Shown: one piece after another, positions 7,294 to 53,416 of the stretch
How positions within the stretch are numbered: position 1 is the first letter of the stretch
Layout: every line of letters starts with the position of its first letter
Assembly (NCBI RefSeq): GCF_006345805.1
Contig: NC_043000.1
Location: 144,708,001 to 144,772,000, forward strand
Origin: Octopus sinensis
Lineage: Eukaryota
Direction: 5' to 3'
Length of the DNA stretch: 64,000 nucleotides
Program-made: the position numbers and the translations under genes
The notes under the pieces: model-generated
What the model saw: only the letters and a program-made list of their open reading frames with translations
Database searches by the model: none
What the model was told of the DNA's origin: nothing

Positions 7294-7294
7294 C

Positions 7295-14588: not shown

Positions 14589-15057
14589 TAAAAGCAAATA
14601 AATGGCACAACGAAGTACCGATATTTACTGGAAAATAGCGAACGTAATAAATACGATGCTAATGTATAGCTTCACTGCTTATGTACTAGCAAAAATGCGT
14701 GTGTGCAACAAACTTGAAAAAAATTGTCTTACCTCCAGGGAGAACATCTGAAAGATGAAATACCTAGAAAGGGATAACGTGGTACCGGTTTCAGATTTAT
14801 CAAGATATGTCTGCCCACATATATTTGATTTATCTTCATCAGCCAACATATACCTCGACAACATTTCAAATGTTGCCACATTCATGCCAATACACACGAC
14901 TGAAAGCCAAAACATTGACAGAACGAGAACACCGAAGAAGTTTCAATAAAAATAGTAATATCGGTACATCGTTGTGCCATTTATTTGCTTTTATGTATAA
15001 TTTTCCCTCACGGGCTATTCTTTACTGGAAAGCAATACTCTCGTATTGCATTACTAC
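14589..15057. mobile_element. PLE-derived terminal cassette with inverted duplication and internal HHR, flanked by (TA)n
   Basis: Arms 14589-14629 and 14954-14993 are reverse complements. HHR on the minus strand inside; the right arm continues about 60 nt to the TA tract. Confidence 0.7.
14780..14845 (-). ncRNA. Type-I hammerhead ribozyme, intact catalytic core
   Basis: Minus strand: tgg-CTGATGA-agat aa atcaa atatatgt gggcag acatat c ttgat aa atct-GAAA-ccgg-TA-cca. Stem I tgg/cca, extended stem II, palindromic helix III ACCGGT, GUA triplet. Predicted cut between 14783 and 14782. Confidence 0.85.
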
Positions 15058-15095
<38 letters not shown>

Positions 15096-15141
15096 GTACA
15101 TATATATATATATGTATACATATATATGTATATATATATAT

Positions 15142-15193
<52 letters not shown>

Positions 15194-15894
15194 GGTATTA
15201 CCATCTGTCTCTAAATACGTGTCTGTGTGAGTGTCCGTGTGCATCTTCCAAGGTAGCTGATTACATGTACACCGAACCGAAAGAACAATATCCATCCATG
15301 ACCTTTTGAACTTCTCAGATATGCAGAAGAATAGACATACTATGTCCTCATAGGGATAATGTCAAAATTATTTCAGGGAAAATAACATCGAGCCATATCT
15401 TATTAGTATAACCAGGAATGTTCAAAAGAGCTTAAAGTAAACTATGTTAACCGCTTTGTGGATGCTTCTCCGAATATTGGAAATAATATTATCCGCTTTT
15501 TCAAATTTCTTTTGCGTTTGCATTTACATAAAGCTTCTCACATTAACCCATAGCGTTACACCTCTTTTCAGAGAGTACTTTTACTAATTCCACCACGCCG
15601 TCTGAGAATTTATGCCCTCGAAACCAAAATTTAGACGGGAAACTAAACAAAAGAATAGCTATCCTCTAAGCACACGCACTTACTTAATAACCAGTAAAAT
15701 TTTCAAGATTCCTCTTTTGTTTATTCTTATGTGATGTTGTCACCAAAACGATTTCAATTATAAGAATTTTGTTTGAGAACTTTGGCACAATTAGCTCTAT
15801 CTAAAAGCGATTGTTCGGATCGTGTGTATATTGTTATCGATTAGACATACAACTGCAGCGATAAGCATATTCAGATATTCAGTGATAAAAATAA

Positions 15895-17000
15895 ATATGT
15901 CTGCACAAATGATATGTACCACTTTGTGTGAAATGATTTTTCGCAGTTTAAACTTTAATTAATTTTTGAAATAAAGCGTTTATTCATCAAAGTATATCAC
16001 ATGATATATTATGATTCAATACACTTATACTATTTCGCTGGTTTAGACGCAAAATCTACTCGCACCCGTTTTAAGTCTCACCCTCATTATTGAAACTCTG
16101 ACCGTGCGGAAACGTAGCTTGGTTTGGAAAAGGCGGTAATCTGATGATGCAAGGTCTGGACCGTAGCTAAACTGCAGCAACACTTCCAGCCCTCAGTTTC
16201 CACGAGATTGCATTAGAGCATATGGGCAGCACCTGCTGGGGCATTGTCAAGCTGTAAAAACGCGCGTCTTCGGTTGATCAATGCTGGGTAGCGAACTTTC
16301 AAAACATAATACATACCCTGCCGTTGTTCAACATAACGTTTAGCGTTTACACTGTTTGGTGCAAGCTCAAAGTGCAACACCTAATCAAAATTTCACCAAA
16401 CACACAACATGGCTTTTACATCAAATCCCACTTGTTTTACAGCAGTTCCTGAAGCTTGGCCGGAACGAAACTACCGATTCCTCATATTAGGATTACGAAA
16501 CAGAATCCATTTTATATCTTCAGTTGCAATAGGAAACCAAGAATGGACATCTCACGGATTTGCCAGAAGCTGTTTGCAAATGTTTACACGTCGTCGAAAT
16601 TAATCATTGGTCAGTTCATAAGGAGCTCTCTGTAGCGTGTAGTCAACAAATTGAACTGATTGAAATGTCCATTATGATGCTTTGCGAAAGACCAAGTTTG
16701 GCTGGCAATGTGATAGAACTTGTGCTTCGGTGTAAGTCAGGCATTTGAAGCACTACCTCATCTTCGAGACGCGAAGACACTGACAATATTTTGTCTTTGG
16801 TCTGGTATAACCTTCCTTTAAAACTGAGCCAGTTTTGTGTCATACGTTAGTTGACATTTCCTGAGCTTTCTGCATCATTAATGTCCTTTGCCGCTGCCTT
16901 TGCACTCAGCTCTATTTACCACAAGTAGAGAGAAATGACTCTAATTGCATATTTTTTCGCCACACATCATAAAAGCTGTAAGATAAAAAATAAGAAAATA
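15895..17000 (-). mobile_element. Decayed mariner (Tc1/mariner) transposase
   Basis: Minus strand: SAKAAAKDINDAE, ATEDIKWILFRNP (DEKW-like), CVW*NF, RYPALINRRRAFLQLDNAP, PDLASSDYRLFQ (YSPDLAPSDY-like). Stops and frameshifts. Confidence 0.85.
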
Positions 17001-17952
17001 ATGCTTATCTGCTATATGTGAAGATAAATAATTAGAAGATAAATAATTCAGTGGTGTGTGTGTGTAGGTATGTATGTGTGTGTATGTTTGTATGTGTGTT
17101 TGTGTGTTTGCTTGCTTGTGTGTGTATGTATGTGTGAGTGTATGTGCAGTTTTCAATATTGACGCAATAAAATTATAGCCAAGATAACGGAAAACCTTAG
17201 TGAATTTCGTTTGTGATGACGTTATAGTAGTATCGAAAGTTAATGTAGATTTATTTAAGCGCTTCACACATCCTTTGTTAATATAACTGTGTCTAACCGA
17301 TTAAGCAGGGATTTAACAGAAATAAGAATGGCAGATGAAACCATGCTTATCGACAGCTTGTTTGTTGTTTTACTTTAGCTTTGTAGCTTTCCATAAACTT
17401 GCACGCACACTCACGTTATGATCTCTTCATCAGTTGCATAAATACCGAGACATTGAGCAGAAAGAGTATCGAGGTTATCCTTGTGTGAGATATTTTCTGA
17501 CATGTTATAACTTACTAGCATTGAATTTGGTTGCAAATTGCTGAATAAATAAATTTTCTTATCAATTGCTGGTATTGGCCCTTATCAAGTATTTCACATT
17601 ATTTCAGTCTACTTTATGCAATGTTTCAACAGAACGGAGCTATGGATATTCCAATGGAACAATTGCCCATCCTGAATCAAATCTTGAAACCTTGGTCTTT
17701 AAGATTGGACTTGAAATCGATAGATCTCATGTAAAGGCTTCAAAATATTTTCTTTTGTCATTTCTCAATTACGATTAGAGCAAGAAGCGCAACGGAAGCA
17801 GTATATCTACACGAAATAAGCGTACAGGTAACTATTAAGAAAAAACGAAATTTCAGCTTAATTTGTATATATGTATGCATGGGACCTGTGTATAATTATA
17901 TATAAATACAAATACACACAACACACAGAGGGTGTCATATGTATATATAAAT

Positions 17953-17994
<42 letters not shown>

Positions 17995-18095
17995 TGTGTG
18001 TGTGTGTGTGTGTGTGTATGTGTGTGTGTGCTTATATATATGAATGTATGCATATTTTTTCCATGTGTACAAATAACGAGGAAAAAATAAATATA

Positions 18096-18170
18096 TTGCT
18101 CGACTAAAAGGCGGTGCTCCAGCAAGGCCGCAGTCAAACGACTAAAACAAGTATAAGTATAAAAAGAGTA
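18096..18170 (+). mobile_element. SINE family A 3' fragment
   Basis: ttgctcgactaaaaggcggtgctccagcaaggccgcagtcaaacgactaaaacaagta matches the tail of the 59582 copy. Confidence 0.85.
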
Positions 18171-18420
18171 TTTACCAGGGTAGCAAAAATTCACATATGT
18201 GCCAGAGATATTACAGCTTACATAAAAAAGGTAGAAATTCAAGGGTTAAGCGACTTGTTTTTGTATTACCTGGATAAATCAAGAAATGGAGTCAAACGCA
18301 GGTGTTATTCAAATCATGTATACTTACAACAAATGTTTTTTAAAAAAAACATTGAGATTATTCCAGAGGGAATTAAAATGATGTAAAACAATAATATCAT
18401 GTCGTTAGGGAAAAAGGAAG
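18171..18420 (-). mobile_element. Older copy of the terminal repeat family at 28091-28343
   Basis: Shares ttaccagggtagcaaaa, aaaggtagaaa and aatggagt..aacgcaggtgttattcaaat with 28157-28300. Confidence 0.7.
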
Positions 18421-18839
18421 AACAAAACAGATCACTAAATAGACCCTTCAGGTTACCTGTCAAACATCGTACCACTGACCAAATGTGAAGAAGCATGCGA
18501 CTACAAAAAGACCACCACTTGTGTTACCATAGCTGCTGAATTCTTCCTACAGCATTAGCATACACAAAGAACACTCACACATACACATATAAATAGTTAA
18601 TACCACACGCAACACAGACACATGCACACACAGAGAAACCTCCATTCGCATACACGCGTACTCAATTAATGCCACACACGCGAATACACACACAAACACA
18701 CCCATGCTATTGCACATGCGCAAACACGCAATGAGAAATACACACAAATACATCTGTTTTTACACTCCACTGTCTTAAGAAGTACATTTTTCTTCGTCCA
18801 TTCCCTTCCGGTCATTTAAAAATATAAATAAATGTGGAT

Positions 18840-19000
18840 TGTTGGCGATTTTTTTCTTCCGTCTTCATTTTCTCATGGACTATCTTCTGTCTCTTGTTTC
18901 TGAAGAGGACTTTCCTCGAAACGTAAAACATATTTTCCTGAACGATTTCCCTGAACGACTTTGAATACTTTGTACGTACTATGTCCTCACGTTGTTAATT
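18840..19000 (+). mobile_element. HHR-bearing short repeat (same family as 59110-59292)
   Basis: gttggcgattttttt..gtcttc...gtttctgaaga...ctcgaaacgtaaaac...gtcctcacgttgt aligns with the reverse complement of 59110-59292; ends at (TA)n. Confidence 0.75.
18896..18929 (+). ncRNA. Minimal hammerhead ribozyme motif, stem II partly decayed
   Basis: gttt-CTGAAGA-ggactttcctc-GAAA-cg-TA-aaac. Stem I gttt/aaac, loopless palindromic helix III ACGT, GUA triplet. Confidence 0.65.
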
Positions 19001-19013
19001 ATATATATATATA

Positions 19014-19110
<97 letters not shown>

Positions 19111-19197
19111 TTGTGTGTGTCTGCGTGTATGTCTGTCTGTATATATATGTTATATATATATATATATATATGAGGCGATATATGTATGTATGTACAT

Positions 19198-19249
<52 letters not shown>

Positions 19250-19264
19250 ATAATATATATATAT

Positions 19265-19410
19265 ATAAGTAAGGAAAATTTTTTTTAAAAATGCAGAATT
19301 TCTCATTGTATTAAAATTTTCTTTCATTTGAGCATTCTGCATTTAAAAAAAAAGTTTTCCTTACTTATCATTTCTCCACGTGCGGTCAACACAACCCCAC
19401 CATTTATTGA

Positions 19411-19412
<2 letters not shown>
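19265..19412. repeat. Fold-back cassette between (TA)n tracts
   Basis: ataagtaaggaaaatttttttt..aatgcagaat.tca (19265-19305) pairs with tga.cattctgcattt..aaaaaagttttccttacttat (19329-19368). The right arm continues about 45 nt. Confidence 0.85.
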
Positions 19413-19451
<39 letters not shown>

Positions 19452-19861
19452 TATATATATGGGGCGATCCAACGAAGCTACACGAAGAAGATAGCCTCTG
19501 TGCAGCATATAAGCTATTGGGAAAGACTCAATACTGATGCTATATTCCACTCACTGAATCGAGTACGCTGTGAATGTCCACCATCTGAACGAACCAAGTT
19601 TCTCCAAAGGCGAAATATATAACTAAATTGAATATTCACATTAAAATTAGCTGCAACCAGATAAGAATATAAAAGGAACTTATACGTATTTTATTCCTTC
19701 ATTAAACATTAGTGGGTTTTTTTTTCTGCTAACTCAGTTTCGCTTATTGCAAATTGCCTTGGACATGGATAGAGATATGGTCCTTAAATACTTGAGTACT
19801 TAACATGTCGATGACTACAACAGCAACAAAAATTACTACTACTGCTACATCTACTTATATA

Positions 19862-19883
19862 AATGATAACGATGATGATGATG

Positions 19884-19982
<99 letters not shown>

Positions 19983-20008
19983 GTTATTATTATTATTATT
20001 ATTATTTT
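19862..20008. repeat. (GAT/AAT)n directly abutting (ATT)n, forming a palindromic trinucleotide tract
   Basis: Strand switch at about 19920 (aataataa|ttattatt). Confidence 0.9.
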
Positions 20009-20175
20009 TATTTCAAATTGTGAATTGCTTCTTTCCAAGGCCAAGGTCAGCGGCCTCACTGATTGTTAGTTGTGATAAACACATCTGAACTCTGCTGACC
20101 GCAAGGATGTGAAGCTCCTTTTGTTTCCTAATGTCACAGGTATGCGAAGTTCCATTGTTGATCTCAATCTCAACA
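20009..20175 (-). mobile_element. Possible non-LTR retrotransposon 3' end with (AAT)n tail
   Basis: GC-richer segment whose minus strand ends in aaataaaaataataat; weak resemblance (ELHIL) to the GTAHILR-type C-terminus of R4-clade ORFs. Confidence 0.3.
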
Positions 20176-20204
20176 TGTGCTGAGACTATTTACACACATG
20201 TGAA

Positions 20205-22885
20205 ATACGGTGGAGTGAAAAAGGTACGTTTTACACAGAATTTCACAATATATTTTCAAGAGTATATATTTTTTGCGAAATCCTTTATAAACAAATGTGT
20301 CAAAATCTGAAGCTCTTAAATTTACATCTTCAAGATATGCAACCCACTTAAAATTGTGAATAATTAGCCTAAAATCAATTTATAACGCCTTTGCCGTTCC
20401 TCATTTTATTTTTTACATTCATTTTTACGAATCGATTTTCGTTTGCGAAATCCCTTAAAAATAAGTGTTAAAATCTTAAGCTCTAAAATTTATACCTTCA
20501 AGCTCGACAACGAACATGAAATTTCGAAATTATATGAAATAAATAGACTTTTCGACTTTTTTTCATTTGATATTTTTTATACGATGTCACTGAATAAATG
20601 CGAAACATGAGGTCTAGATGACACACGCATCAAAACAAAAGTTACGTTGAAACCAATTTATGATACTTGACAAATTTTGATGATAAAAGTAATTAATATT
20701 TCCAGTTTGTTCGAAATAATTCCATGTAACTGAATAATACAAATCATTGTAGGGCATTCCTTTTCGTTCCAGTAATAAAGACAATTAATCTTTTTACGTA
20801 GACGAGAATTAACTACTCACACTCAAATGAAGAATGAAAATTTTGGAAATTTTTTAAGCGACATAATGCTAATTGATTGTAATGTTCAAAATAGCTAAAA
20901 CTAAATAATTTTAATTGACTATTGCTGTAATTGATTATTGTAAGACGTTGAAAATGCGCCATTTTACCGGGGTTACTAAATGCCATTTGGAATGAACATT
21001 TCCCTTCAGAAATAAACCGATGGATATGAAGAAGGTATTTTTGATCAGTGCTGCGATAGTGTATGTCTACTGATGGTAAGTCTATTGGAATCTGCTACAA
21101 TTTCACAACACTTAGTATTTCACATCGCTCTGCAATCGGCCCAAGAAGTCTACGAGGCCCGGTAGTTTTTCCTTCGAGAAAGTTAAGAAGATGACGTGCG
21201 TGGAGCTGATACACACACAAACACAATGGCTTCTTCAATTTATCCCCCAAAAGTTTTATGGTATCTCTTATTAGTCCCGTATTGACTGCAGTACAATCGC
21301 AAACTACAGCTATCCTGTGTTTGCTTACTATCTCATTGTTTTCTATATAATTCATCAGACCAACGGAAATGGCTTTTGCAGAACCTGTTTTAACAGCAGA
21401 GTGATCAAGATAGCGAGACCTAGGTTCTTCTATCAATGCAATGGGTTCTTATTGAATTGTTTTCTTACGAAATGTCTTTCCCATTTGTTCACTTATGAGA
21501 GCTGTGCCCCTACTTCCATCAACATACATGGCAGACAACGGTTTATGTGGCCTACCTTCCTGCTGCATTGATTTACGTTTTGTGGATCAATCCCACTTTA
21601 ACTTCGATGTGGCTATAACACAATAGGTTTCACCAGATGTACTTGCCGTTAAGTCACTGATGACCGAACTTATAAGAGCAGAAGCACGGTCTGATATACC
21701 GATGTGGTCACAGGGCGAAGCTAGTTCTGTGAGTTTCATTCGTTTTATTGGTGTTTTTGAATTTACGCTTTTGCTGACGTCTTTTCGTTTCATCGAAATG
21801 GAATTGGAAAAACTTCATCTTCGCCTGTGGATCCATTTCTAGATTCACTGCTTGATGAAAACGCTTCAATTCAGGCTCCTTTGCTGACGTAGAAGGGCAA
21901 CCGTGATCTGACTGATTCTTTCGAATCTGAACGTTCTGTTTCGATACTGCTTCATCTATTCCGCCAATGATCATTTTTCGATTTGTCCGTTGATCTAGTA
22001 AAAATTCTTGTTCTCGCCGTGGGACTTTTTTGTCACTACTACAACTGCAGTTTTTAACGGAGTTGCACTTGCAACAGGAAATGTCAAATAAATATTGTGT
22101 TTAAGCATATTACACTTTGCTTAAAACGATGGAACACTTTTAAATATTTCTTACAGATTTCAGTAATGATTTTTACTTTAGAGAAACTTTAAAGATTTTC
22201 GGTTTATCTGACTCAATCGTAACACAAGAGAGGGATGCTTTTTGCCAAAGAAGAATGATCTTTTCTGCTACAATCTTGAAAATTTGTTTAATTGAAGGAT
22301 CTTTCTACACTACATAATTTTCTTTTTCCCGTTCAATTAAAACGCCCCTTTTAGCACGTCCTTATAAGTTGGCAAAACTCGCTCATTAAGATCACATTGA
22401 GTACCAAATATTAGGCATTCAATATGATGCGTTATTGGCTTATCAGTCATCAATAAATATAAACAACACTAACTTTAACACGAACATTAATTTTAATACA
22501 ATGGCTTAAAGTCCATATACAAAGCAGAACACTTCATGCACGTACGATGAAAGTTCACACGCGACGACCTTTGACCCGGAACTGAAGAGAATTTCACACT
22601 CTCGTTCGCTCAATGCAAAACATCAAGATTTAGTCAATTCTATCGAAACTTCTTATGTAATCCCTTAACGATACTATATTTACTGTTTTGCAGTCTTCTA
22701 TGAAGAAATCATTATCCGTTACGACTTATAATATATGGAATCCAAACTTCGATCAAAAATAGCGATTTGCAAAATGTTCAGTTGCGTTGCGGAGCCTCAT
22801 AAAATATTTAACAGCTATATTTATGATTATTTCAAGTACAAGACAAAGGTCGAAACTACACAACATTTAAAAATACCACAGAGTA
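20205..22885 (-). mobile_element. Decayed DNA transposon, hAT-like (hATx/hATm-type) transposase
   Basis: Minus strand: VLPTYKDVL; WQKASL; FDISCCKC..NCSC..KKVP..EQEFLLDQRTNRKMIIGGID; CDHIGISDRASALI; IEEPRSRYLDH; VCDCTAVNTG..KPLCLCVYQLH..LEGKTTGP. About 80 bp subterminal direct repeats near 20270 and 20440. Ends and subfamily uncertain. Confidence 0.7.
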
Positions 22886-24197: not shown

Positions 24198-24253
24198 GAT
24201 TATTATTATTATCATTCTTCTTCTTCTTATTATTATTATTATTATCATTATTA

Positions 24254-24313
<60 letters not shown>

Positions 24314-24372
24314 GTATTGTTGTTGTTGTTGTTGTTGTTGTTGTTATTATTATTGTTATTATTATTGATATT
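24198..24372. repeat. Compound (ATT)n/(GTT)n microsatellite
   Basis: Direct reading. Confidence 0.95.
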
Positions 24373-24437: not shown

Positions 24438-24510
<73 letters not shown>

Positions 24511-27711: not shown

Positions 27712-27772
<61 letters not shown>

Positions 27773-27775
27773 CAC

Positions 27776-28051
27776 TTGCAGCGTAGAAGGTGTTTATAAG
27801 CTATTTAAGAAACACACAAAACCGTTAGATTCATTTCAACGTTTAAATTTAATTGGTCAAAATATTTTCGTCGCTTTGAGACCGCGACCTGTTCACTGAA
27901 AATATGTTGACAAATTAAATTTAAATGTTGAAGTGACTCTAACGGTTTTGTGTGTTTCTTAAATGGCTTATAAACACCTTCCACTCTGCAATCGTTTTCG
28001 TTCCAGCACACGAGCTCAGATAAAGTCACTCGATATACAAGTATATCTCCG

Positions 28052-28090: not shown

Positions 28091-28113
<23 letters not shown>

Positions 28114-28343
28114 GAATGGATGAATTATCCTTTGTTTACCGTTATCATGGAAAATTCAATAAACAGTTACCAGGGTAGCAAAATTCACGCAAGTAACACG
28201 GATGAAGCGACCTATTCAAAGGTAGAAACTCCGGGTTAATATGCAGTAATTTGTGTAGTATAAGTAAATAAATGGAGTTGAACGCAGGTGTTATTCAAAT
28301 TCTTTTACATCTGCGTTCAACTCCATTTATCTATTTACTTATA
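28091..28343. repeat. Fold-back cassette between (TA)n tracts
   Basis: tataagtaaataaatggagttgaacgcaggtgt (28259-28291) pairs with acatctgcgttcaactccatttat(ctat)ttacttata (28307-28343). The long arm extends to the left. Confidence 0.9.
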
Positions 28344-30330: not shown

Positions 30331-31877
30331 GATATTATATTGTATTGATGATATATAAACGAAATTTATTTCTTATTCATATTTCTTGCGAGTATTGTAT
30401 ATGAGAAGCACAAATGAATGCATTTGCTCGTCAGTTTCTTAATCTAATCTTCATATTAAATATCATCGTCATTCTCTGAGGGAAAATTTTGCAATACACT
30501 ACCCTTTTCGTAGAAAAACAAACAAAAATTGTTTATTGTTTTAGGCTGGTCTAGTAAAATAGCAAAAACGGTTAGCTGAAAACTCTAGAGTTTCTGCAGT
30601 AAGAGCATAGCAACTCCTTAAGTAAACAAAATTGAATAACATTCGTGCAAGTTAGAGTCCTAAAAAATTGTAAAAATTATATTTCGTTTCTCCATTTTTT
30701 TCGTCTTGAGAGGTACTTTTCGTAAAGTTCTTCTTTCATTCACACTCCCTTCATTTCATAGGCAATATAGAATTATGTTGCAAATGTTTAAGTTGGTTAT
30801 TATGCGACAAAAACCAGCTGCAAGTTGTAGAAATATTCACGAAAATGATTAATAAATGTGTGGTCCATAAAATGCTACGTTAATTAAAAATAAAGAATAT
30901 TGTATTCTAATTAGAGTAATGATAGTGAGAGATCAAGACATTATCTGTTATATGTTTTACATTTTTTTTCTGTGCAAAATATTTCGGTGTTATTTGTCTA
31001 AATCTATTAATTTAGAAAATTGTTAATTGTTCATTCATGTTTCACAAATGGACTCAATAGGGTACCATACAATAATGAGAACGAATGTAATAATGAATAT
31101 AATAAAAAGCTACAGTTCGCTAAATTTTCTGTTTTCCTCGTTTCAGTATATTAGAATGAGTGTAGTATAGATTAAGTGATAGCATGATACTAAAAGATAT
31201 TACATTTTCATCAAGTTAGTGCCATGAAATAGAATAAATAATGTGTCTGTGCGGGCATGCATGGATGTGTACGTGTGTTTACGATATACTACGTTATACT
31301 ATATTATATTATTTCATATTATATTATATCATATTATATTATGGTGTATCTCATGGTCATAATCTATTTTGAACTTTGCCAGGTTCTTAATAGTGCAACC
31401 CATAGAGTAAATGACACTTGTCTGACTATAGAGAAATGTCGACTTGAACAGGAGTGGTAGAAATGCGTATTCTTTTAATGATTAAAATTACAGCTAAAAG
31501 ATCAATTTCGGTACGTTTATATATTTATATTGCAAGATTCTAATTTCCTCTTCAGAATTGAAAGCATGTACTTAAGCTCTGTTTTTGCCATTCGTGAACA
31601 ACCATACAACAACCTTTCTTTAGTTTACTAATGAAAATGGTTATATGGAATATCCACCTGTTTATAAAATTCGGGGTGTTTTCCGTCGTAAAGGTAGAAA
31701 CGTGTCGGAGTGTGAAGAGGCGTTTTGTTGAGTGTTTTATGAGTCCGTTCATGGATCTGATAAATAGTTATTACCGGCTCAATATTTGTCAAATCTTTAC
31801 TGCATTATTGCGAATGACTTGGCAATAATGTTGGTGTAGGTGCTTTCCAATGGCTGGATATACGCCTGTAAATATCT

Positions 31878-32109
31878 GTTTCTTTATTGCCCACAAGGGG
31901 CTAAACATAGAAGGGAGAAACAAGGACAGACAAACGGATTAAGTCGATTACATCGACCCCAGTGCGTAACTGGTACTTAATATATCGACCCCGAAAGGAT
32001 GAAAGGCAAAGTCGACCTCGGCAGAATTTGAACTCAGAACGCAACGACAGACGCAATACCGCTAAGCATTCCGCTCGGTGTGCTAACGTTTCTGCCAGCT
32101 CGCCGCCTT
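31878..32109 (-). mobile_element. SINE family B
   Basis: Reverse complement of 38192-38424. Confidence 0.92.
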
Positions 32110-33701
32110 TAAATATCTATTTAATTGTTGATGCTTTCCGCGCAGTTATATATTGATGTGTGTGTTTTTATCGAAGGACTTTTGATATATATGGCTAAGG
32201 AACTTCGATTTTTGTCAGCTGCTTCAGTGGAATTTCTTTCTTTCATATCGGCATAAATATTGCATGCAGCTTATATCCCTTTAAAGCTGACACATTTTCT
32301 TTTAAAAATTAATATCCAAGTATATGTATATTTTGTTTGCGTTCCTTTATAGGCATATTATTATAGTTCAGTGTTTGTAATGCGATAATATTTGTGCTCA
32401 AAGGTTGATTATACTTAATTACGAAATTTTAAAATACGGCTAATGAGTAAGTTCATATTAAGGTGTATATTACAGTTAATAGCTTATATAACATTCCTCA
32501 AATGTTTAAATTAGACAACTCAAGTACTCCTTAGATTTATAATTAGGCTGTTAGAGTGTTTACTCATTATTTCTATATTCTACATCTATATGTTTGTCTG
32601 CGTGATAAATGAATGCAGCTTGTATTTATTAGAGGTGTTTCTTCAGGAAATGATCAATATCTATTACGATTCTTATCTTACGTTCATTCTTCATTGTGAT
32701 TAATTTTTGCAATTATCTCGAAACGAATTTTAGCTCCAATACATATACGTTTATATAGGTACTAGCGTATATGTGTGTGTGTTCAGATATCTAAATATTT
32801 GTAAACGAATCATGAATCCTTTTTCAAAGACGATTTTCTGTGTTGGAACATGAATAGTGATCTTAGAATAGATATATGACTACCAACAATTTGGGGGTAA
32901 TTATATTCACTAAATGTGAAATGAAACAATGGTATACACACATGTTTAATCAACCTACGTATGTTAAAAACAAACACACATGTAGTTTCCTATGAAGAAA
33001 ATCTTGTATAAAGTATTTGTAAGTTTGTTAAGAAGCATTGAATACGATTAAATCCTAGGCCTTATTTACCTTGTTTAATATCAATGAAGTGCGTAATTTC
33101 ATGATGCATTGATATAAATTCCATTTTTTCTCTTCATCAACCATGTAGAACAATTCACATTGTTTCTTTATATAAAATTCCATATTTACTACGCCAAACT
33201 TTTATACTTTCAAGCATATTTCTCCTACATTTCATGTGATTATGAAGTTAGATATACATTTACAACAATGACTAAAATATGAAGAAAAGACATTCTTTCT
33301 TTATAATAGGTACATTAACAACATCTTCCAAAACATTATCTTTCTTATCGGTGATATATTATTGATTATTTTCATTCAGTGGTATACATTTAGTGATTTT
33401 CGTTTTCTTAGATTTTTGATTTATTACCATATAAGAAATATCAGTTCAATTCATCTCTCTATAAATCTGTTTCCGTTTCAGTTTATCTTTTAATCTATGA
33501 GTCTAAATGTGAAGATAAATATAGGTTGGAGACGTTTTGAGAATTACACACACAAACACATACCTACATGCATATACATATGTGTGTGTACCTGCGTATG
33601 GATGCGTTTGTAGATGTGTGTACGTGTGTATCGTTGCTTATTAAAATGCTGTTACGCAGATTTTGCCTTGCCAATGAAAAGTACTTAATCAATAAATATT
33701 T

Positions 33702-34989: not shown

Positions 34990-35960
34990 GTCATCCCATA
35001 AACAGTGCGGTTTTTTCAAACGCATGAAAGACGGAGGAAGACGAGATATTCGACCGCCATGGTATCACAATAAAACCAGGTAGGAATTATACTTTGTCCT
35101 TAAGGTTAGTGAAAGTTTTGAGGATTGCAGTTTGATTTTGACAGTTATTTTTTCAAAGCTATAAGAGAAGTGACAAAGGAGCATATTCAGCATATCTTGC
35201 TTTATGAATCCAATAAAAGAAAGTATATTAATGCAGTATATGGCGATCTGACAATAAGTGTGAGCCAGTGTAGCGGTGATTTCAGAAATAACAGCCACAA
35301 ATTACAGCCTAGATGACGAGTCTCGTCCTGGAAGATCTGTAGAGCTGAACGAGAACGTCCTGAAAACCCTGGTAGAACAAAATCCCATCGTAACTGTTAA
35401 GGAACTAGCAGAGAAGCTTGGATTTGGTCATTCAATCATTCATGAACACTTGTGTGCCATCGGAAAAGACAACAAATTGGGCCAATAGGTACCTCACAAA
35501 CTTTCAGAGGCTAATCACGTGGAGTTAGTGAATGTGAGCTCTTCTTTGCTGCCACGTCTCACGAGCGAACATTTTGGGGTCGAATAGTGATTGGTGACAA
35601 GAAATGAGTTCTCTATAAAGTGTGAAGCACCCAAGAGAGTGAGTAGGGAAAGGCAAAACACCAGCATACCAGGCTAAAGAAGGCCTTCACCTACCGAAGG
35701 AATTGATATCTGTTTGGTGGGATATGAAAGGCTTAGTCCACTTTGAACATTACAATCCAAACAAAACGATAACAAAGGAAATCTACTGCGAGAAGCTTGG
35801 GCGGCTTAAGTCAGCACTGTCGCTTCAAGATGAAAGGTGTTCTTCCATCAGGATAACGCCCGGCCACATGCAGCGAGGATGGCATTCGAAAAGCTGCAGC
35901 AGTTTGAGAATTATACCCCACCCACCATGTTCACCTGGCATTGTCCCATGCTAGCCACAG
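34990..35960 (+). mobile_element. Decayed mariner transposon
   Basis: KEHIQHILLYE; LDDESRPGRS (GRP-like); GQ*VPHKL (WVPHEL); RIVIGDKK*VLY; SVWWDMKG; FHQDNARPH; PHPPCSPGIVP (YSPDLAP). Confidence 0.92.
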
Positions 35961-38191: not shown

Positions 38192-38419
38192 AAGGCGGCG
38201 AGCTGGCAGAAACGTTAGCACGCCGGGCGAAATGCGTAGCCGTATTTCGTCTGCCGTTACGTTCTGAGTTCAAATTCCGCCGAGGTCGACTTTGCCTTTC
38301 ATCCTTTCGGGGTCGATAAATTAAGTACCAGTTACGCACTGGTGTCGATGTAATCGACTTAATCCGTTTGTCTGTCCTTGTTTATCCCCTCTGTGTTTAG
38401 CCCCTTGTGGGTAGTAAAG

Positions 38420-38424
<5 letters not shown>
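38192..38424 (+). mobile_element. SINE family B, well-preserved copy in (TA)n
   Basis: aaggcggcgagctggcagaaacgttagc (A-box-like) and gagttcaaattcc (B-box-like); multiple copies in the window. Confidence 0.92.
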
Positions 38425-39262: not shown

Positions 39263-39295
<33 letters not shown>

Positions 39296-39296
<1 letters not shown>

Positions 39297-40312
39297 ACAC
39301 ACAACCCCAGAAACAGTGAGGCATTCAACACTATTGTTCAAACTCTCCCTTTACAAACTAGAGATCCAAAAATGAACGACATCCTGAAAACACACAAACT
39401 CTTCAAATGCAAAAAACAAGACAAATCGCTTAAGAGACTACTAACAAATGCGAAGCTTTACAAAAACACCACGAAACCAACGGTTGAAAAATGTGGACGC
39501 CCGAACTGTGGAACCTGCCCCAACCTGCTTGAAGGCTCGGATTTCCTTTTCAAACAAGGACAGCGTTTCACAATTAAAACTAGTTTCACCTGTGCCTCTG
39601 AGATCCTAATTTATGTAATAACCTGCTCGGGTTGCGGTCATCAGTACATTAACTTTGAGAAAGAGAATCACTCTGCATAAGGAGCAAATCCGTTTCCCGC
39701 AATACAGACAAATTCCTCTTAGTGAACACATAGAAAAATGTGCAGGTAACATCAAACAAAATTTCACAGTCTTCCCTTTCTACCAGTGCAAAGTCGCAAT
39801 CTCTCAACTAGAACGCTTATATAAAGAAACTTTTTTCATTGAAAAATACAAAACACGTCTTAATATGCACGCTATACCAACTTTTATATTTTTACATATT
39901 ACATCACTGTACATTAATCCCCTACTAAACTAGGTCTTTTTTTAAAACCTGTCTCTTTTATGTACACATATTTATTCCCCACCCAAAACCTGAACACTTA
40001 TCCCCCTTACACACAACAATAACAATAATAACAACCAATTACCTCCCTTTATTTGTCTACTTGTAAAGTCATTCATTCGTGAATTTCATCACACACAACA
40101 TGGACCAAATTTCTTCTTAAGAAAAAATATATATTCATATAAATTAAACATTATATCATGTATAACGATAGCGAAACCGGTCGATATATTAAAACCTATA
40201 TTAAAACCATGTAAGTGTGCGTATTTTCCTTTTTTAATTTCTTATATACATTACAACCCAGCACGTTGGGATAACCGAAATCCCTCTTTTCTGTTACTAC
40301 TACTACTACTAT
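39296..40312 (+). mobile_element. 5'-truncated Penelope-like element (Neptune-type linker plus GIY-YIG endonuclease) inserted in (TA)n
   Basis: TTHNPRN; KCGRPNCGTC (Cys linker); FTCASEILIYVITCSGCGHQYI; LRKRITLHKEQI; SEHIEKC; RLYKETFFIEKYKTRLN. Frameshift at about 39650; 3' UTR carries a half HHR. Confidence 0.9.
40161..40182 (+). ncRNA. 3' half of a hammerhead ribozyme
   Basis: tat-aacg-ata-gc-GAAA-ccgg-TC (palindromic ACCGGT, GUC triplet). The CTGANGA half is absent. Confidence 0.5.
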
Positions 40313-43738: not shown

Positions 43739-43772
43739 ATATATATATGGGTTCCATTTGTTAAGCATTGTG

Positions 43773-43816
<44 letters not shown>

Positions 43817-44194
43817 CACGAAATCCTACTTCAGTGCTTCGGACAGAAGATAATTTATCTACATGTTCTTCATGTTTAGGGTGTATATGATGCTTTGTTA
43901 TTGCATGTGTCCTTAAATTATACGACAAAATATATGAATACACGCAGATGCGCCCGGCTTGTTTATGTAGACGTATATATTAATTTGTGATCATACATGA
44001 ACGTGTGTACGATGCAGTATACCTGTGAATGCGTATGGTTCGTCGTTATCTTCACAGAATGTACACGGTTGTGTGGGAGAATCTATTATATTTTCATATC
44101 CACATAGTTGTATATGCCTGTTACATCGCTTCCAATTGTTGGCCCCTGTAATTTTTATATTTTCCGTACGAAGACCAGCTTTATTAAGGCTGCA

Positions 44195-44432
44195 AATATT
44201 GCAGTAAATATAAGTGACCCGTCGGCATCTTCACTATCTCGTCCGGCAGCTTATTCCACGGATCCGCAACCCGGACGAAGAAAGCCCCTCTCCTTCGATG
44301 AAATCATTGCAGATAGAGCTTTTCGGAGTGACCCCGCAGCCGACGCTCTTGAGCAGGAGAGAAGAACAGCTCTTTCGAGAGGTTACACTTTCCGCTTATG
44401 ATGTTGTGAGCAAGAATGAGATCACCACGGCG
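44195..44432 (-). mobile_element. CR1-clade LINE 3' fragment
   Basis: Minus strand: RRGDLILAHNIISG..ELFF..RLRGHSEKL..AFFVRVADPWNKLPDEIV, the typical CR1 ORF2 C-terminus. Confidence 0.85.
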
Positions 44433-46427: not shown

Positions 46428-47503
46428 TTAGTATGACATTTGTAGAAAAGAAAAAAAGTTTGCCAATATTTTATAAATACAATAAATAGTTTTATTCATA
46501 AATGTATGCACTATGTTGTCAATACCCTTTTGACGTTTCACCGGTAGCTGGTCCAGCCTGGAACTGTAAGAGCCTGGCAATCTAGAGTCAAAAATATTTT
46601 GGAAGGGCTGTTTTACAGCATCGCCGCAATTATTTTTCCTATGAAATGTCATTTTTGCAATGTGTAGTCTGCTGTTGTCTTGCAATAAAATAGGAATCGA
46701 TCTGCTAACTAATCTTGTTTTTTTTTGTAAGCTTCTGCATCATTTTGTCCAGTTGGCTGCAGTATACTTCGGCCGTGATTGATGAGCCAGTTGTAATGAA
46801 ATCATAATGGATCACAACAGACCACCAGACACACACATCAGCTTTTTTGATGAAGTTTGTTTTTTGGACTGTGTTTTGGAGGCTCGTCTTTGTCCAACCA
46901 TTTTGCTGAACGGTTAACGTAGTATTGGATCTATTTCTCATCACATGTTACAATTCGATTCAAAAATTATTCATTTGTGTGACGAGAAATCCACGTTTCC
47001 AAACATTGCTGTTTCTGATTTGCAGTGAGTTCATGTGGAACCAGATTATCCAAATTTTTCACTTTACCGATTTGAAATTGGTGGTTGAACATTGTTCGCC
47101 TGTTAACATCAAACAACAATGATAATTGACGGGCACTTTACGATGGATCTTACTCAAGGATGGCTTTCAGTTCGTCATGAAACACCTTTGTTTCTGGTCG
47201 TCCGCATTGCTCATTTTTGAAGTCAAAGTTGCCATTACGAAATTTTGCATACGAATGTGATACTGTTTGCTCTCTAATAACATTAGAATGAAATACTCCA
47301 TTAATATTCCGAGCTGCCTGCGATGCTGTATTTCCAAGAAAGAAACCATATTTCAAAATTGTACGAATTCGAGTTTATCCAACTATAAACAAGAATACCA
47401 AAGAAGAAAAAAAAAATTATAAATAATCTATACAGAGCAAAATGAGTAGCTGTCACAATTTACCATATATCTTACTACAAATTTCATAGTTGACGACCTA
47501 ATA
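46428..47503 (-). mobile_element. Decayed mariner transposon
   Basis: KYGFFLGNTASQAARNIN..FRNGNFDFKNEQCGRPE; VPHEL; DEK*I; VWWS; LQDNSRLH. TIR-like end tattaggtcgtcaactatgaaatttg at about 47478-47503 (minus). Confidence 0.9.
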
Positions 47504-50500
47504 TATATTTAACTATATATACATTTATCCATACACACATATATTTATCGATATGTACACACACACGCACATATATATATATATATATGCATTTATTTTC
47601 TCATTTCTATACGTATATATATCCAGATATAATGTTGGTAATATTATGCTCACTAATCTTAGGATGGAATATTTGATGATGAAAATCGCTTCATCCAAAT
47701 AGTAAGAAAATGTTCTTCATCGATATTTTATGTATGGAGAGCATACTCTTTTGTGACAAAAAATTTCTTGAAACATCATTTTGTATGGGTACAAGTGCAA
47801 TAAAACATATATTACATACAAGAAGGAGTAATTAGATCGTTGTATTACTAAAGTTTAATTTGAAATTGTGCCACAGTAGTAAAAGTTTTCATCCTGATCC
47901 TTAGGTGAATACCTTAATTATAGGGTGTATAGATCATTTTCATCAGGTTAATCTATACTTTCCGTCCTTTTTAACTATGTGTAGCATTTATATATTAGCA
48001 TTTATAATATAATAAGTTCATTACAATTATTAAGGAATTCATCCCGATGGAATTATCGAAATCGTTTTCACTAGGATTACAATCGTCAACTTTAAAGTCG
48101 ATTATACTTGTTTATTTATAAATCTATATTCTTTTTTAGTTGAACAAAATTTCTGCTTGTTGAGTTGTTCCGCAACCCGAAGTCTGACTTCCTAATCTAC
48201 GTTTCAAACCCTGTTATTTCCCACACCACGTCTTGGTGTATGAATTCTGCATCGCATTTTATAAATAATATATAACATTCTTATAAGTTACGCCTAATCA
48301 ATTTCAAAACGTAAACTGTATATGTGTGTGGGGGGAAGAGCCTTTTTATATGCCCGTGTATGTGTGTATGTGTGCGTATGCATAGAGGCAATATTTTGAA
48401 CACTAATTGTCCATATTCACACGCTGTGTTGAGAAGTATCTACATTTTGTTAGTTTACCTTACAGATTTCATGCTGTTTTGCCTTTATAAAAATAATAGT
48501 TAGCTCACGAACATAAACAATTATTTGAAGAAGATGCGTATATTTTGACTAATTCTATAACTTTAAAATGGGCCAGCCACAAAATCATCCCACAAATAAC
48601 GGTGTCTCATATCAATATAGAGTGTTTGTAAAATATTTCGTCACAAAGACTCGAAGAAACATAACCCATAATCCCCTCACACATTTGTATATACATTATT
48701 ATATTTGAAAATACGCGTATCAGTGCGCATGTTTGTCTAAATATAGAAGAATTAATACGAAGGAGTGCATAATAAAGGGTACTACAACATAGGTAAATTC
48801 CCCACGTTCAAAACATAATATTCATATAGTTCCTTCAAATTTCTTTTATTGTTTCTGTTTTGATATAGAGATCGTACACATGACCAAATGTCAATGATAT
48901 GAATATCGGTACGTTCCTCCAGAACTGTAGCAAAACCAATCCTGCATGAAAATCAAAATCTTGTGTTGAGAAAGTACTTCAGTAAAAAGATTTTCTCGAA
49001 AGAAAGGACCAAGAATCGTGGCGAATACAGGATATTTGCAATGGGACAAATATTGGAGATGATTGAAAGAGATCGAGAATACTACTCAACTAAATGGCAC
49101 ATATAAAGCTATCATGCAATCATTTAAATTAAGTGAATTGAAATTGCATTCAACTATATTTACTAGAATAAACTTGTACTCTTGGAAGATACTTCTGAAT
49201 TAATTGGTAAAATGTTGCCCTCTTATATCTATATAAACCGCATCATATACATAGCATCATTTGACAAGAGACTGAATCAATAATGTAAACATACATATTG
49301 CTACGGATACTGGGTCTGATATAAAGTAAATATAGATTGGAACAGTAATAAGAAATTGAGGATTCTTCAGGTAATTTGACTCTTCGTGCAATTACTTAAT
49401 TATTTCTACGTAAATATGTCCAAATTTTTAATTTGAAAAGCGGCTAAAGAACCCATACTAATTTAATATTACTTCTCACTTCAATTCTTTCAACGCCTTC
49501 ACAAAAGCACCATGCCTACACTTTTGTATATATTTGTTTTCAATCTCTTCTCGTCGTATTTATAGCTAGCCATAATTATTACTTCTTCGTCTCTAATATT
49601 ATTTCTGACTAATGAATAGTCATGTCTATGAACATTGAAGTATACCAATGAATAAACTATAATACAATAAAGTGTTCATTTCAGGTGAAGCACTGCAATG
49701 TGTATAGATATGGCAATAAATTCAATACTAGTAGAAGCATTTATTTTAAACACTAATATAATGAAAGCAATAGATGTGTCAGTAAAATTAGAACTATGGC
49801 GCTAAATATCATTTTCTAATATTGTCTGTGAAATGTGATTTAAACATTGAGTATTGTTGCAAAAAATATTTAGAAGAAATAATATATGAACTACGTATAT
49901 ATGAGAGTAAACATTAAACCTATTTAGAAAATAATGAGATAGATGGAGATGAAACGAAAGAACTTGAAAAATCAAAAGTCAACAGTCTAGACAATGATTT
50001 ATGAAATACGAACTTCCTTGATAAATGTCAAAAGATAGCGTAAAAAATTAAGCTGAGATAAAATCATATTCTGACTGTTACAAAAGTATATTTACCATAG
50101 CATATGCATTCGTGTACACATACGTAGGCACATACATACATGCATACATACACAATCACATATATGTATGTTTGTAGGTGTGTGCGTGTGTGTTCAAGTA
50201 CATATATGTATGTCCGAACGCTTTTATGATTGCGTGTTACTGCTTGATCAACTTACTGTAGGGAAATGAAGTAAAAATATCCAAATCCAGAGAAGGGATA
50301 CGAGTGATATTTACAGTTCTTGGGATACAAAAGCAGCTACTTAAGCGTTGCGTAGGTATCTAAATGTACAGTCGAGAACAAATCAATAGCTTAGTAGCTT
50401 CAAAACGTCAAGTTCAGAAAAATTGTCTCCCTTGAAGAAACAAGTATGAATGTTAAAAGCCAATGCAAGCGAATTAACATCAAAGACATTGTAACATATA

Positions 50501-50517
50501 TATGTATGTATGTATGC

Positions 50518-50560
<43 letters not shown>

Positions 50561-50562
<2 letters not shown>

Positions 50563-50712
50563 TTCACCAAAAATTTAGATTCAAATGAATATGGTACTTA
50601 ATTTAGATGCTCCAGAATTCTGTATGGTGCTATCCATATAAATCCGTGGGGTGAGTATAATCAAAATAAGCAACAACAGTAACTCCGGAGTTATTCTTGT
50701 TGCTTATTTTGA

Positions 50713-50714
<2 letters not shown>
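50561..50714. repeat. Cassette ending in a 52 bp loopless palindrome, between (TA)n tracts
   Basis: tcaaaataagcaacaacagtaactcc|ggagttattcttgttgcttattttga (50661-50712), 24 of 26 positions complementary. Confidence 0.9.
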
Positions 50715-50755
<41 letters not shown>

Positions 50756-51657
50756 TATGTACGCGGTCTCGTATAAACACTCTACCGTATATACAGAAAG
50801 CCATATCACACACACATACATATGCCAATGAAAATTCAATTGTTTTTTTCCGATATTTATTTAAGTATTTATTCAATCTGCACAGTGATGTTAATTGTGT
50901 TATGTATTTTGACTTTCGAGTTCAAATTGCACCAGTGTACATTTACTGTATCGACCTTTTGAGTCCAAAACTACGCTTACTGCTACACACTTCTTTGACA
51001 GAACTCATATTTTTTTTCTTTTTAATAACACGAAATATAATTATACCTGACGATAATTTCTATTTCAATTTAATTTTAATTTTCATCATTTCCATTTACT
51101 TTATTGTCGCTTCCGCTGTCTACATACTTCGTTAGTTCGTAATTCAATAAGGTAAGAATGCATAATAATTTCATTTCTGTAAATAAATATAATTTGTTTG
51201 ATTGGCAGAAAACACAGGGGAACCACTGTCTACTGTATGACACAATCATCTTGCAAAATACAGCTGAAGAAATTCCAAAATTTTCCCAGAAATCTAAATG
51301 TAAACCAAAAAAAATTCTAAATTCCTGTGGTATATACAAGGCAAGAGAATGTCATAGCATGCTGGAGCGTTATAAAATATATTTTGCAGTTATTAAAATT
51401 ATATTATTCAACGAAAATTTTTAATTATGTTTTGTTTCTCAAATTTTGAAGAGGGAAAAATAATCAATGAGTTTCTGATAATAAAATATAACAGAAAATA
51501 TCTTTTAATTCTTTTTTTCATGTAATTATGAATTTATACTAAAATGGAAACAAAAATCCAATGAAAATCATTGAAAATCAGTAGAAAAACAACTTGGAAA
51601 CAAAGAGCAATATTCTAACAGTATCAAACACATCTCTCTTAATACTCTGCTACTTTA

Positions 51658-51857
51658 AAGCGGCGAGCTAGCGGAAACGTTAGCACGCCGGGCCGTATTT
51701 TGTCTGTCGTTACATACTGAGTTCAAATTCCGCAGATGTAGACTTTGCATTTCGTCCTTTCGGAGTCGATAAATTAAGTCTCATTTGCGCACTAGGGTCG
51801 ATTTAATCGAATAGCTCTTCCCAAAACATTTCAGACCTTGTACCTAGAGTAGAAAAT
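51658..51857 (+). mobile_element. SINE family B (short form)
   Basis: gcggcgagctagcggaaacgttagcacgccggg...gagttcaaattccg...gtcgataaattaagt. Confidence 0.85.
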
Positions 51858-52088
51858 AAAATAAAATAAAATAATATTTTTCCACTATAATGAAGGAAAT
51901 GCATACGGCATGATATAATGTTCAACAGACGGTGTTAATATACATCTCGGAAATCATAAACCTCTTTGTTTAGGTGATAGACTCATGAAGAATGATACAG
52001 AGATGAGTAAAATTCAAAGGAAATGCATCTGTGAGAAGTACAAGTAATCAATAATTAAGATGAGGAGATTCAATGAATATTATATATG

Positions 52089-52125
<37 letters not shown>

Positions 52126-52139
52126 ATTTATATATATAA

Positions 52140-52195
<56 letters not shown>

Positions 52196-52208
52196 TATAT
52201 ATATAATT

Positions 52209-52523
52209 GAGGGCGCGTGGCTTAGTGGTTAGGGCATTCGGCTCATGATCGTAAGGTTGTTGAGTTCGATTCCCGGCGACGCGTTGTGCCTTGACACACA
52301 CTTTATTTCACGTTGCTCAGTCCACTCAGCTGGCAAAAATGAGTTGTACGTGTATTTCAAAGGGTCAGCCTTGTCACTCTCTGTGTCACGCTGATTACCC
52401 CGAGAACTACGTTATACGGATACACGTGTCTGTGGATGCTCAGCCCTTTGACGTTAATTTCACGAGCAAGCTGTTCCGTGATCGTATCAGCTGGGACCCT
52501 CGTCGTCTTAACCGGCGGAGTCT
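52209..52523 (+). mobile_element. tRNA-derived SINE (family C2)
   Basis: A box tggcttagtggttaggg, B box gagttcgattccc. Core shared with 43403; 3' tail shared with 57394. Confidence 0.88.
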
Positions 52524-52981
52524 TTAATATATATATATATAACAGTGTAGGTGTATGTGACACACAAAGAGCAAGACAGTGCTTGTCTATCGACACAAGA
52601 ACGATATGGTGTATAAGACTTTCGAAATTAATGAAGCACAACATAATGTTTATATGTGTCCAACACATTCAATTCCCAGGTTAAATGTATATTGATGCAT
52701 GCAGGCAACCCATACACATATACACATACATGGATACATGGATCATATGTGATTGCCAAAGAACCCAAACGAAGAAATTCACGTGCAGAGGCATGTTCAC
52801 TCGCATGCACAAACGCGTGTTTGTGGACGCGGATGGGTAGGATCGGTGGGTAAATAAATACATTTAGGAGTATTTATTCGGTAGAAAATGTATTAAATAT
52901 ATGCCATGTTCCATAGAGACTCAAAACAGCATATCCTTTCTGCGTATCTCTCTCACCAGGCGTATATATATATATATATAT

Positions 52982-53027
<46 letters not shown>

Positions 53028-53056
53028 TAATATATATATATATATATATATATATA

Positions 53057-53413
53057 CGTAGTTATTAGAAGGTTTGGAATTAATGTACAATATTTTATAT
53101 TAGAAGAATTGAGGTACTCAGAAATTCGGATGGTTTTATATTTGCATATATTTATTTGTATATCACATGTTTGTATACATCATAAAACTTATATCACATA
53201 TCATATATCATATATCATATAATAGAGCTTTCGTCTATTGGTCAAAATTTATCCAGAGGAACTTAGTTCAATTTGAAAACTCGACCAGACTGGACAAAAG
53301 CGCTAATATATTTTACATGATATAAGTTATATGATGTATAAAAACAGGCAATATACAAATAAATATCTGTAAATATAAAATCATCCGAATTTCTGAGTAC
53401 CTCGTTTATTCTA

Positions 53414-53416
<3 letters not shown>
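53057..53416. repeat. Fold-back cassette (>100 bp arms) with two inverted HHR 3' halves
   Basis: 53098-53197 pairs with about 53318-53416. Inner arms 53221-53243 and 53283-53307 read GACGAAAGCTCTA (minus) and GACAAAAGCGCTA (plus). Confidence 0.85.

Follow-up and report, generated by a model that had tools for sequence, protein, structure and literature searches.

Two-armed insertions of Penelope-like element terminal repeats in AT-rich DNA of Octopus sinensis, probably formed from two fixed priming sites

A stretch of 64,000 nucleotides (nt) from the genome of Octopus sinensis (positions 144708001-144772000 of contig NC_043000.1, hereafter the window) carries six hairpin-like cassettes, each lying in TA-rich microsatellite DNA. 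Our analysis has shown that these cassettes are short insertions of six families of Penelope-like elements (PLEs), named F1 to F6 after cassettes 1 to 6, and four of these families have been traced to coding parents. In each cassette, one arm with a short tail ends at a fixed site A, an inverted arm lacking this tail ends at a second fixed site B, and the 5' ends of the two arms are joined. The cassettes are probably two-armed insertions of PLE terminal repeats into (TA)n or AT-rich DNA, in which both nicked strands of the target prime their own complementary DNA (cDNA), one from A and one from B, and the two cDNAs are joined head to head. According to passages of PMC8557442 and PMC3846280, a PLE layout with a tailed end, an inverted 5'-truncated copy without the tail and a bias for (TA)n has already been published. 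The cassettes are thus ordinary PLE insertions of known layout, and the new elements are the families and a counted argument on the mechanism.

The arms were detected by self-BLAST of the window with the microsatellites masked, and the family searches were run across the 2.72-Gb genome. An earlier reading of this DNA, the original prediction, had proposed six mutually unrelated cassettes with inverted arms between TA-rich microsatellites, and the masked self-BLAST confirmed this. Inverted arms are present at all six places, no cassette matches another, and each is bounded by a TA-rich microsatellite, which on the right side of cassette 6 is (CA)n followed by TA. The proposed layout of a short arm facing a long arm needed correction in cassettes 1, 3 and 6, which have unique sequence in both arms. 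In cassette 1 the tailed arm is the shorter one (100 nt, against 368 nt for the tail-less arm). The places were also right, except that cassette 4 starts at about 28111 and not at 28091, and that a seventh cassette at 7292-7862 had been overlooked. In the following list, element coordinates are counted from site A, the tailed end (0), with negative numbers towards the 5' end of the element.

14592..14959, minus strand: cassette 1 (F1), tail-less arm from site B, -66 to -434, mapped on the natural tandem copy L058; contains the full hammerhead-like motif
14770..14855, minus strand: type I minimal hammerhead-like motif of F1, with CUGAUGA core at 14842-14836, long stem II, GAA and palindromic stem III
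14957..15056, plus strand: cassette 1, tailed arm ending at site A, -100 to 0, tail about 63 nt
19265..19299, minus strand: cassette 2 (F2), tail-less arm from site B, -45 to -80
19297..19413, plus strand: cassette 2, tailed arm, -117 to 0, equal to the 3' end of a 4.6-kb PLE with reverse transcriptase (RT) and GIY-YIG (L224)
27771..27899, minus strand: cassette 3 (F3), tail-less arm from site B, -55 to -184, with a G3-C8 motif at 27853-27899
27898..28051, plus strand: cassette 3, tailed arm, -154 to 0, beginning at the GAAA of the motif
28111..28308, minus strand: cassette 4 (F4, a Hydra-like PLE), tailed arm, 0 to -198, beginning 4 nt 3' of the predicted ribozyme cut
28307..28339, plus strand: cassette 4, tail-less arm ending at site B, -181 to about -148
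50560..50688, minus strand: cassette 5 (F5), tailed arm, 0 to -129, beginning at a CCGG palindrome that lies 8 nt 3' of the predicted cut
50685..50712, plus strand: cassette 5, tail-less arm ending at site B, -129 to -101
53063..53239, minus strand: cassette 6 (F6), tailed arm, 0 to -164, beginning in stem II of a degenerate hammerhead-like motif
53239..53416, plus strand: cassette 6, tail-less arm, -212 to -36; it contains the degenerate motif (about 53273-53310)

The inner ends of the tailed and tail-less arms therefore lie at -100/-434, -117/-80, -154/-184, -198/-181, -129/-129 and -164/-212 in cassettes 1 to 6, respectively. The second fixed end, site B, has been located at about -63 in F1, -45 to -52 in F2, -52 to -63 in F3, -148 in F4, -96 to -101 in F5 and -36 or about -75 in F6. 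The pairing of the two ends was counted in samples anchored on one end, which cover two of the six families (F4 and F5). F5 had 262 and 552 occurrences of its exact end patterns of 30-32 letters and F4 had 212 and 136, against 0 for a reversed control. The tail-anchored samples took, in genome order, the first 70 of the 262 F5 and the first 70 of the 212 F4 tail matches; four F5 matches and one F4 match were left out as adjacent repeats or the window's own copy, and L303 was removed as a duplicate junction, which leaves 69 F4 copies. The samples anchored on B hold 30 loci for each family, including one tandem-duplicate pair of F5 and four F4 loci which recur from the tail-anchored sample. All junction positions are BLAST ends, precise to a few bases.

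An adjacent inverted arm was found in 40/70 F5 and 38/69 F4 tail-anchored copies. Its outer end lay at B in 39/40 and 32/38 of these, at A in 1 and 0, and elsewhere in 0 and 6, so that A is paired with B in 71 of the 78 two-armed insertions and A with A in one. When the loci were anchored on B, the partner arm ended at A in 13 F5 and 13 F4 loci, elsewhere in 1 and 6, and no partner was present in 16 and 9; a partner at B was seen in 0 F5 and 2 F4 loci, the latter being a single insertion seen twice. The A/A and B/B shares together stay below 0.1, against a value of 1 if each arm could choose freely between A and B. The junctions between the arms vary from copy to copy in these end-anchored samples. 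A fixed layout of F3 and F5, which had appeared in searches with whole cassettes, was rejected as a ranking bias because it was gone in arm-only and end-anchored samples.

The geometry of the arms bears directly on their origin. Among the 71 A/B insertions, the arms share no sequence in 15 (F5 5/39; F4 10/32), and in 34 the tail-less arm extends beyond the 5' limit of the tailed arm by more than 10 nt (F5 14/39; F4 20/32), a count which becomes 26 (F5 8; F4 18) at a threshold of 30 nt. In these insertions a single cDNA cannot have templated both arms, and two priming events are the reading which this geometry favours. Overlaps of 1-9 nt are present at 34/71 junctions. Arms which overlap by at least 30 nt share inherited minor alleles in 24/32 F5 insertions (10.0 expected) and 19/31 F4 insertions (8.3 expected), with 5/7 in F3 and 8/10 in F2, and private alleles are common to both arms in 5/52 (F4 and F5 together). 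The shared alleles point to one RNA or one source locus, or else to subfamilies active in turn.

The following course of events may thus be proposed. The PLE endonuclease (EN) would nick both strands of an AT-rich target, and each nicked end would prime a cDNA, one from the fixed site A, giving the tailed arm, and one from the fixed upstream site B, giving the tail-less arm. Both cDNAs would be served by one RNA or one source locus, as the shared alleles and the symmetric junctions described below suggest. They would stop early or at the 5' end of the RNA, which in F5 may be a ribozyme cut and in F3 a transcript start or a splice site, and would be joined by 1-9 nt of microhomology or a few added bases. 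Initiation at a site A within the 5' repeat would give stumps consisting of the repeat only; this possibility is suggested by the F2 parent L224, in which site A adjoins the start of the open reading frame (ORF). A more specific proposal, programmed twin priming, is put forward tentatively, at somewhat less than even weight. According to it, one protein dimer acting on one RNA would use A and B on the two strands, so that the tail, the inverted copy and the hairpin stumps would be the outcome of a single reaction. Both cDNAs might then reach the same RNA 5' end, in at least one family a hammerhead cut, and this would point indirectly to ribozyme cleavage in the germ line.

The four families with coding parents (F2, F4, F5 and F6) continue upstream into GIY-YIG or RT plus GIY-YIG coding sequence of PLEs, in agreement with the earlier suggestion of mini-insertions from several TA-targeting PLE families. 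In L224, (TA)n is followed at the 5' end by an inverted arm of 16 nt from B, then by an ORF between two terminal repeats and by (TA)n again; the F2 repeat on both sides of the ORF forms a pseudo-LTR (long terminal repeat) arrangement, which is shown for F2 only. L224 matches RVT_1 with an E-value of 2e-8, above the Pfam cut-off, its sister copy L223 matches GIY-YIG at 6e-4, below the cut-off, and the downstream ORF of L224 has its start codon about 30 nt after site A. The F4 parents L482 and L102 hold an RT and a GIY-YIG-like region by motifs and tblastn, with no Pfam match. Their translations have DKT and the pairs CxxC and CxH around E and N, without CCHH; stops and a repeat interrupt this region in L482, and neither the CxCX5C linker nor the RWK motif could be recognised there. 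The F4 ORF also has an (AAT)n run ahead of the endonuclease (L482:7500-7780), resembling the inserts rich in asparagine known from rotifer Penelopes. In one copy, L475, F6 runs on into RT and EN (by motifs and tblastn; RVT_1 E-value 5e-6, below the cut-off), and in two copies (L472 and L479) F5 does so into an EN-like stretch. The 3' region of F6 (L475:7100-8300) is made of internal repeats containing (CA)n, and an F5 subfamily (L411, L420 and L424) has different upstream sequence beyond about -323. By motifs alone, F4 resembles the Hydra clade as described in section 11 of PMC8557442, with which it shares DKT, the absence of CCHH, and CxxC and CxH around E and N, while the CX4CX2C linker and CCHH-type residues of F6 are Neptune-like in terms of the same source.

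F1 consists of a non-coding tandem unit measuring about 434 nt; the repeats have a period of about 430 nt, and L058 carries two of them. Its units occur in tandem and inverted arrays of retrozyme-like appearance (L058, L059 and L032), with a small stem-loop just before site A. RT or EN matches beside L036, L149 and L165 were considered as further parents and set aside as unrelated neighbours, by orientation or distance.

Hammerhead-like motifs were identified in all six families by motif and hand pairing, with a core, stem II, GAA, a palindromic stem III whose sequence differs per family, and stem I. The prediction that three cassettes contain hammerhead ribozyme sequence holds: cassette 1 has a complete motif on the minus strand, cassette 3 a G3-C8 variant and cassette 6 a degenerate form. 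The core counts are motif occurrences in fetched loci, partly overlapping. The CUGAUGA core is present in 22/24 for F1, 58/74 for F4 and 74/78 for F5, and a U3-A8 core in 22/22 for F2 (register unclear) and in 28/30 for F6, in two forms and with degenerate stems. In F3 the core is a swapped G3-C8 in 38/46 occurrences, A9 is followed by an additional G and the cut triplet is UUU (L185 and window 27853-27899, minus strand), and the 5' strand of stem I is reduced to 3 nt in the motif of cassette 3. The tailed arm of cassette 2 ends before reaching the motif of F2. In F1, F4 and F5 stem II has 40-60 nt (L102, L192 and window 14770-14855), far above the usual minimal hammerheads, and arm ends are scarce within these long stems. 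The predicted cuts lie at -256 in F1 (after GUA at 14783/14782), -145 in F2, -144 in F3, -202 in F4, -137 in F5 and -147 in F6. Rfam gave no hammerhead match for cassettes 1 and 3 at E<=10, only chance microRNA-like matches, and no hammerhead among the window matches listed (150 of 223). U3-A8 cores, an extra base after A9 and palindromic stem III are known from passages of PMC4209133; the G3-C8 variant was not found in PMC3088659 by keyword nor in those passages, and a prior report is possible.

It had been predicted that the arms would often be joined at the ribozyme, and this is clear in F5, while it is not significant in F4 and the F3 ends pile up elsewhere. In the window, cassettes 3 and 6 are joined within the motif, 4 and 5 just 3' of the cut, and 1 and 2 away from it. 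For F5, the predicted cut has 21/109 arm ends no more than 10 nt away (rate ratio 3.7 with p 7e-6 against the 100-nt neighbours; ratio 2.2, p 0.02 against only the stretch from B to the cut, a comparison window chosen afterwards), and the B-anchored replicate gave p 0.006 with four ends at the pattern limit and one duplicate left out. For F4, with duplicates left out, the values are p 0.18 (tail-anchored) and 0.09 (B-anchored). In the F2 and F3 arm-end samples, which are ranked by similarity, 5/23 tailed and 5/12 inverted arms of F2 end at -137 to -143, just 3' of the cut and also on an AT palindrome, and 10/28 tailed and 7/14 inverted arms of F3 stop at -201 to -205, a site some 22 nt upstream of the core which reads like a splice acceptor or an initiator. 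Since arm ends become more frequent immediately beyond B as well, in both F4 and F5, and short palindromes adjoin the cuts, in vivo cleavage in F5 is only suggested. Copies without an inverted arm stop at the same hot spots (-201 to -205 in F3 and -131 to -134 in F5), so these look like template ends.

Some observations weigh against the formation of the insertions from two primed cDNAs. Symmetric junctions make up 14/39 in F5, against 3.7 by permutation, and the J1-J2 rank correlation is 0.41; F4 has 3/32, with no excess (p 0.25). About 40-45% of the copies have no inverted arm, and the outer ends of six F4 copies in each sample are unexplained. The last letters of both A and B are TA-like, so that B may mark an endonuclease cut and not a start site. 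The links to coding parents come from two copies in F5 and one copy in F6, with weak or no Pfam support, and coding parents of F1 and F3 were not found in the fetched loci, no genome-wide protein search having been made.

The symmetric F5 subset fits equally with two cDNAs running off one RNA end and with snap-back or self-priming, in which a single cDNA or antisense template is copied after folding back on itself, often at the ribozyme, and the endonuclease trims the product at B. This is close to the self-priming on an antisense template proposed in PMC3846280, as far as its passages go, and the original prediction had also favoured such a route. Cassettes 2, 4 and 5 are compatible with it, as are the junctions at short palindromes (CCGG in cassette 5), the alleles common to both arms and the inverted arms of F3 (7/14) and F2 (5/12) ending where many tailed arms do. 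However, a folded-back molecule can make neither arms without shared sequence nor two arms each with unique sequence, as present in cassettes 1, 3 and 6, and the one-armed copies end at the very hot spots which look like template ends. Snap-back is therefore an unlikely explanation of the insertions as a whole and fails as their general route, although it may be the source of a part of the symmetric subset.

The target sites speak to the remaining explanations. TA follows site A in 60/69 F4 copies, against a background of 8.9%, which bears out the expected TA flanking; the end pattern of F5 itself holds three TA letters and is biased for this count. F3 also inserts outside TA, where a duplication of at least 10 nt is present in 14/15 such copies and in 3/210 crossed pairs. 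The target duplications measure 11-16 nt, and a single duplication encloses the two-armed unit as a whole. Two one-armed insertions placed side by side in one (TA)n tract, or a two-armed master copy amplified as a unit, would agree with the common occurrence of one-armed A and one-armed B copies, with a few identical junctions at two loci (L302/L303) and with the 29 best matches of cassette 3, which keep its overall layout and were ranked for that layout. But the arms abut without TA between them, always 5' to 5' and nearly always A with B, a single target duplication encloses both, and the copy-to-copy differences of the junctions largely refute a master copy, so that this origin is rather improbable. 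Miniature inverted-repeat transposable elements, or other non-autonomous DNA transposons with terminal inverted repeats which target TA, are likewise short, non-coding, flanked by TA and high in copy number, with inverted ends; they are a very improbable source, as had been argued earlier, because length and inner boundary are not fixed, 5' truncation is variable, the ends are unequal by a fixed tail, the duplications are of 11-16 nt, and the sequences contain hammerhead-like motifs and are continuous with RT/GIY-YIG coding sequence. TA tracts are self-complementary and hard to sequence, but fold-back artefacts of assembly at such tracts are the least credible origin, again as expected, since the arms differ by 1.7-5.6% (2-6% in round figures) with few private alleles in common, ends are fixed in each family, target duplications are present, and similar joints occur in short-read contigs of several runs, even though none of the listed contigs bridges the exact window junctions.

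LINE-1 twin priming, in which two target ends reportedly prime two cDNAs that are joined by microhomology into a 5' inversion (Ostertag and Kazazian 2001), differs from the octopus insertions in that their second site is fixed per family and near the first, and in that their arms often overlap and give hairpins. With the insertions of endonuclease-containing PLEs, as presented in passages of PMC8557442 and PMC3846280, the octopus copies share 5' truncation, an adjacent inverted copy, a one-sided tail, a terminal-repeat hammerhead, the bias for (TA)n and target duplications of about 10 nt in the published cases. Unlike these, they are mostly stumps of the terminal repeat only, with tails of 36-148 nt across families against the published 30-40 nt; A/B pairing and arms without shared sequence are not described in those passages. 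PAc, the anole Poseidon protein, cleaves and extends both strands in vitro, with two start sites bounding the tail, a predicted dimer and an AT-rich target, according to the parts of PMC11167929 consulted. Two fixed internal start sites bounding a tail and the AT-rich target are common to both systems, but that source gives no strand difference in the start site, whereas the octopus arms nearly always use different sites; a keyword check of it gave no discussion of inverted insertions. Searches by title or abstract, which did not cover subscription reviews and supplements, found no twin-priming model of PLE inversions, and a prior statement is possible.

Like the animal non-LTR retrozymes of bioRxiv 10.64898/2026.07.22.740005, from the part of that text available, F1 consists of non-coding units in tandem, each with a type I hammerhead; it differs in having a unit of 434 nt inserted in the two-armed PLE layout. 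Palindromic stem III, the extra base after A9 and U3-A8 cores are common to the octopus motifs and to the retrozyme and minimal PLE hammerheads in passages of 10.64898/2026.07.22.740005 and PMC4209133, while the G3-C8 core of F3 and the 40-60-nt stems II of F1, F4 and F5 set them apart.

The formation of tandem and inverted PLE insertions is named as an open problem in a passage of PMC8557442. The octopus families, with hundreds to thousands of young copies each, make the arm geometry countable, and the counts speak against self-priming as a general route. They also give a sharp prediction, one arm from A and one from B, which can be tested in the published PAc assay. The stumps supply many hairpin loci and may be a source of small RNAs. 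In support of the abundance claimed earlier, first-look candidate totals were 1,596 for F1, 1,409 for F2, 2,572 for F3, 2,264 for F4, 1,348 for F5 and 1,998 for F6, and 40 candidates were scored for each family. With a strict detector, 4 fold-backs were obtained from 40 window stretches bounded by TA and none from 800 shuffled ones, although it overlooked cassettes 2 and 6 and the seventh cassette; in three samples, which are TA-biased, it gave one fold-back per 7-29 kb.

Two further features of the window are given below.

7292..7862, no strand assigned: seventh cassette, with an inverted arm at 7296-7462 and a longer arm at 7460-7862, tail about 72 nt
39294..40310, plus strand: 5'-truncated PLE copy lying between two (TA)n tracts, with a GIY-YIG-like region that is frameshifted

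The seventh cassette is bounded by TA and laid out like the other six, and the masked self-BLAST gave its arms as an inverted pair at 7304-7790. It belongs to a separate, older family with about 80% identity to other copies and 3,099 first-look candidates, in which a hand motif scan found no hammerhead. Over 240 nt, the DNA of the truncated copy is about 75% identical to that of the F2 parent; the copy also has a CX4CX2C linker and, near its 3' end, a remnant with GAA, palindrome and GUC; by itself it gave no Pfam match. The window also contains a 70-nt near-perfect hairpin at 9271-9340 without bounding TA tracts, and two kinds of dispersed repeats resembling short interspersed elements, one at 13156-13503, 53473-53808, 56245-56624 and 59585-59975 and the other at 13766-14008, 31870-32112 and 38192-38421. 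Decayed reading frames which look transposase-like by eye were seen at 21095-22100 (minus strand), 35643-35954 and 46428-46739.

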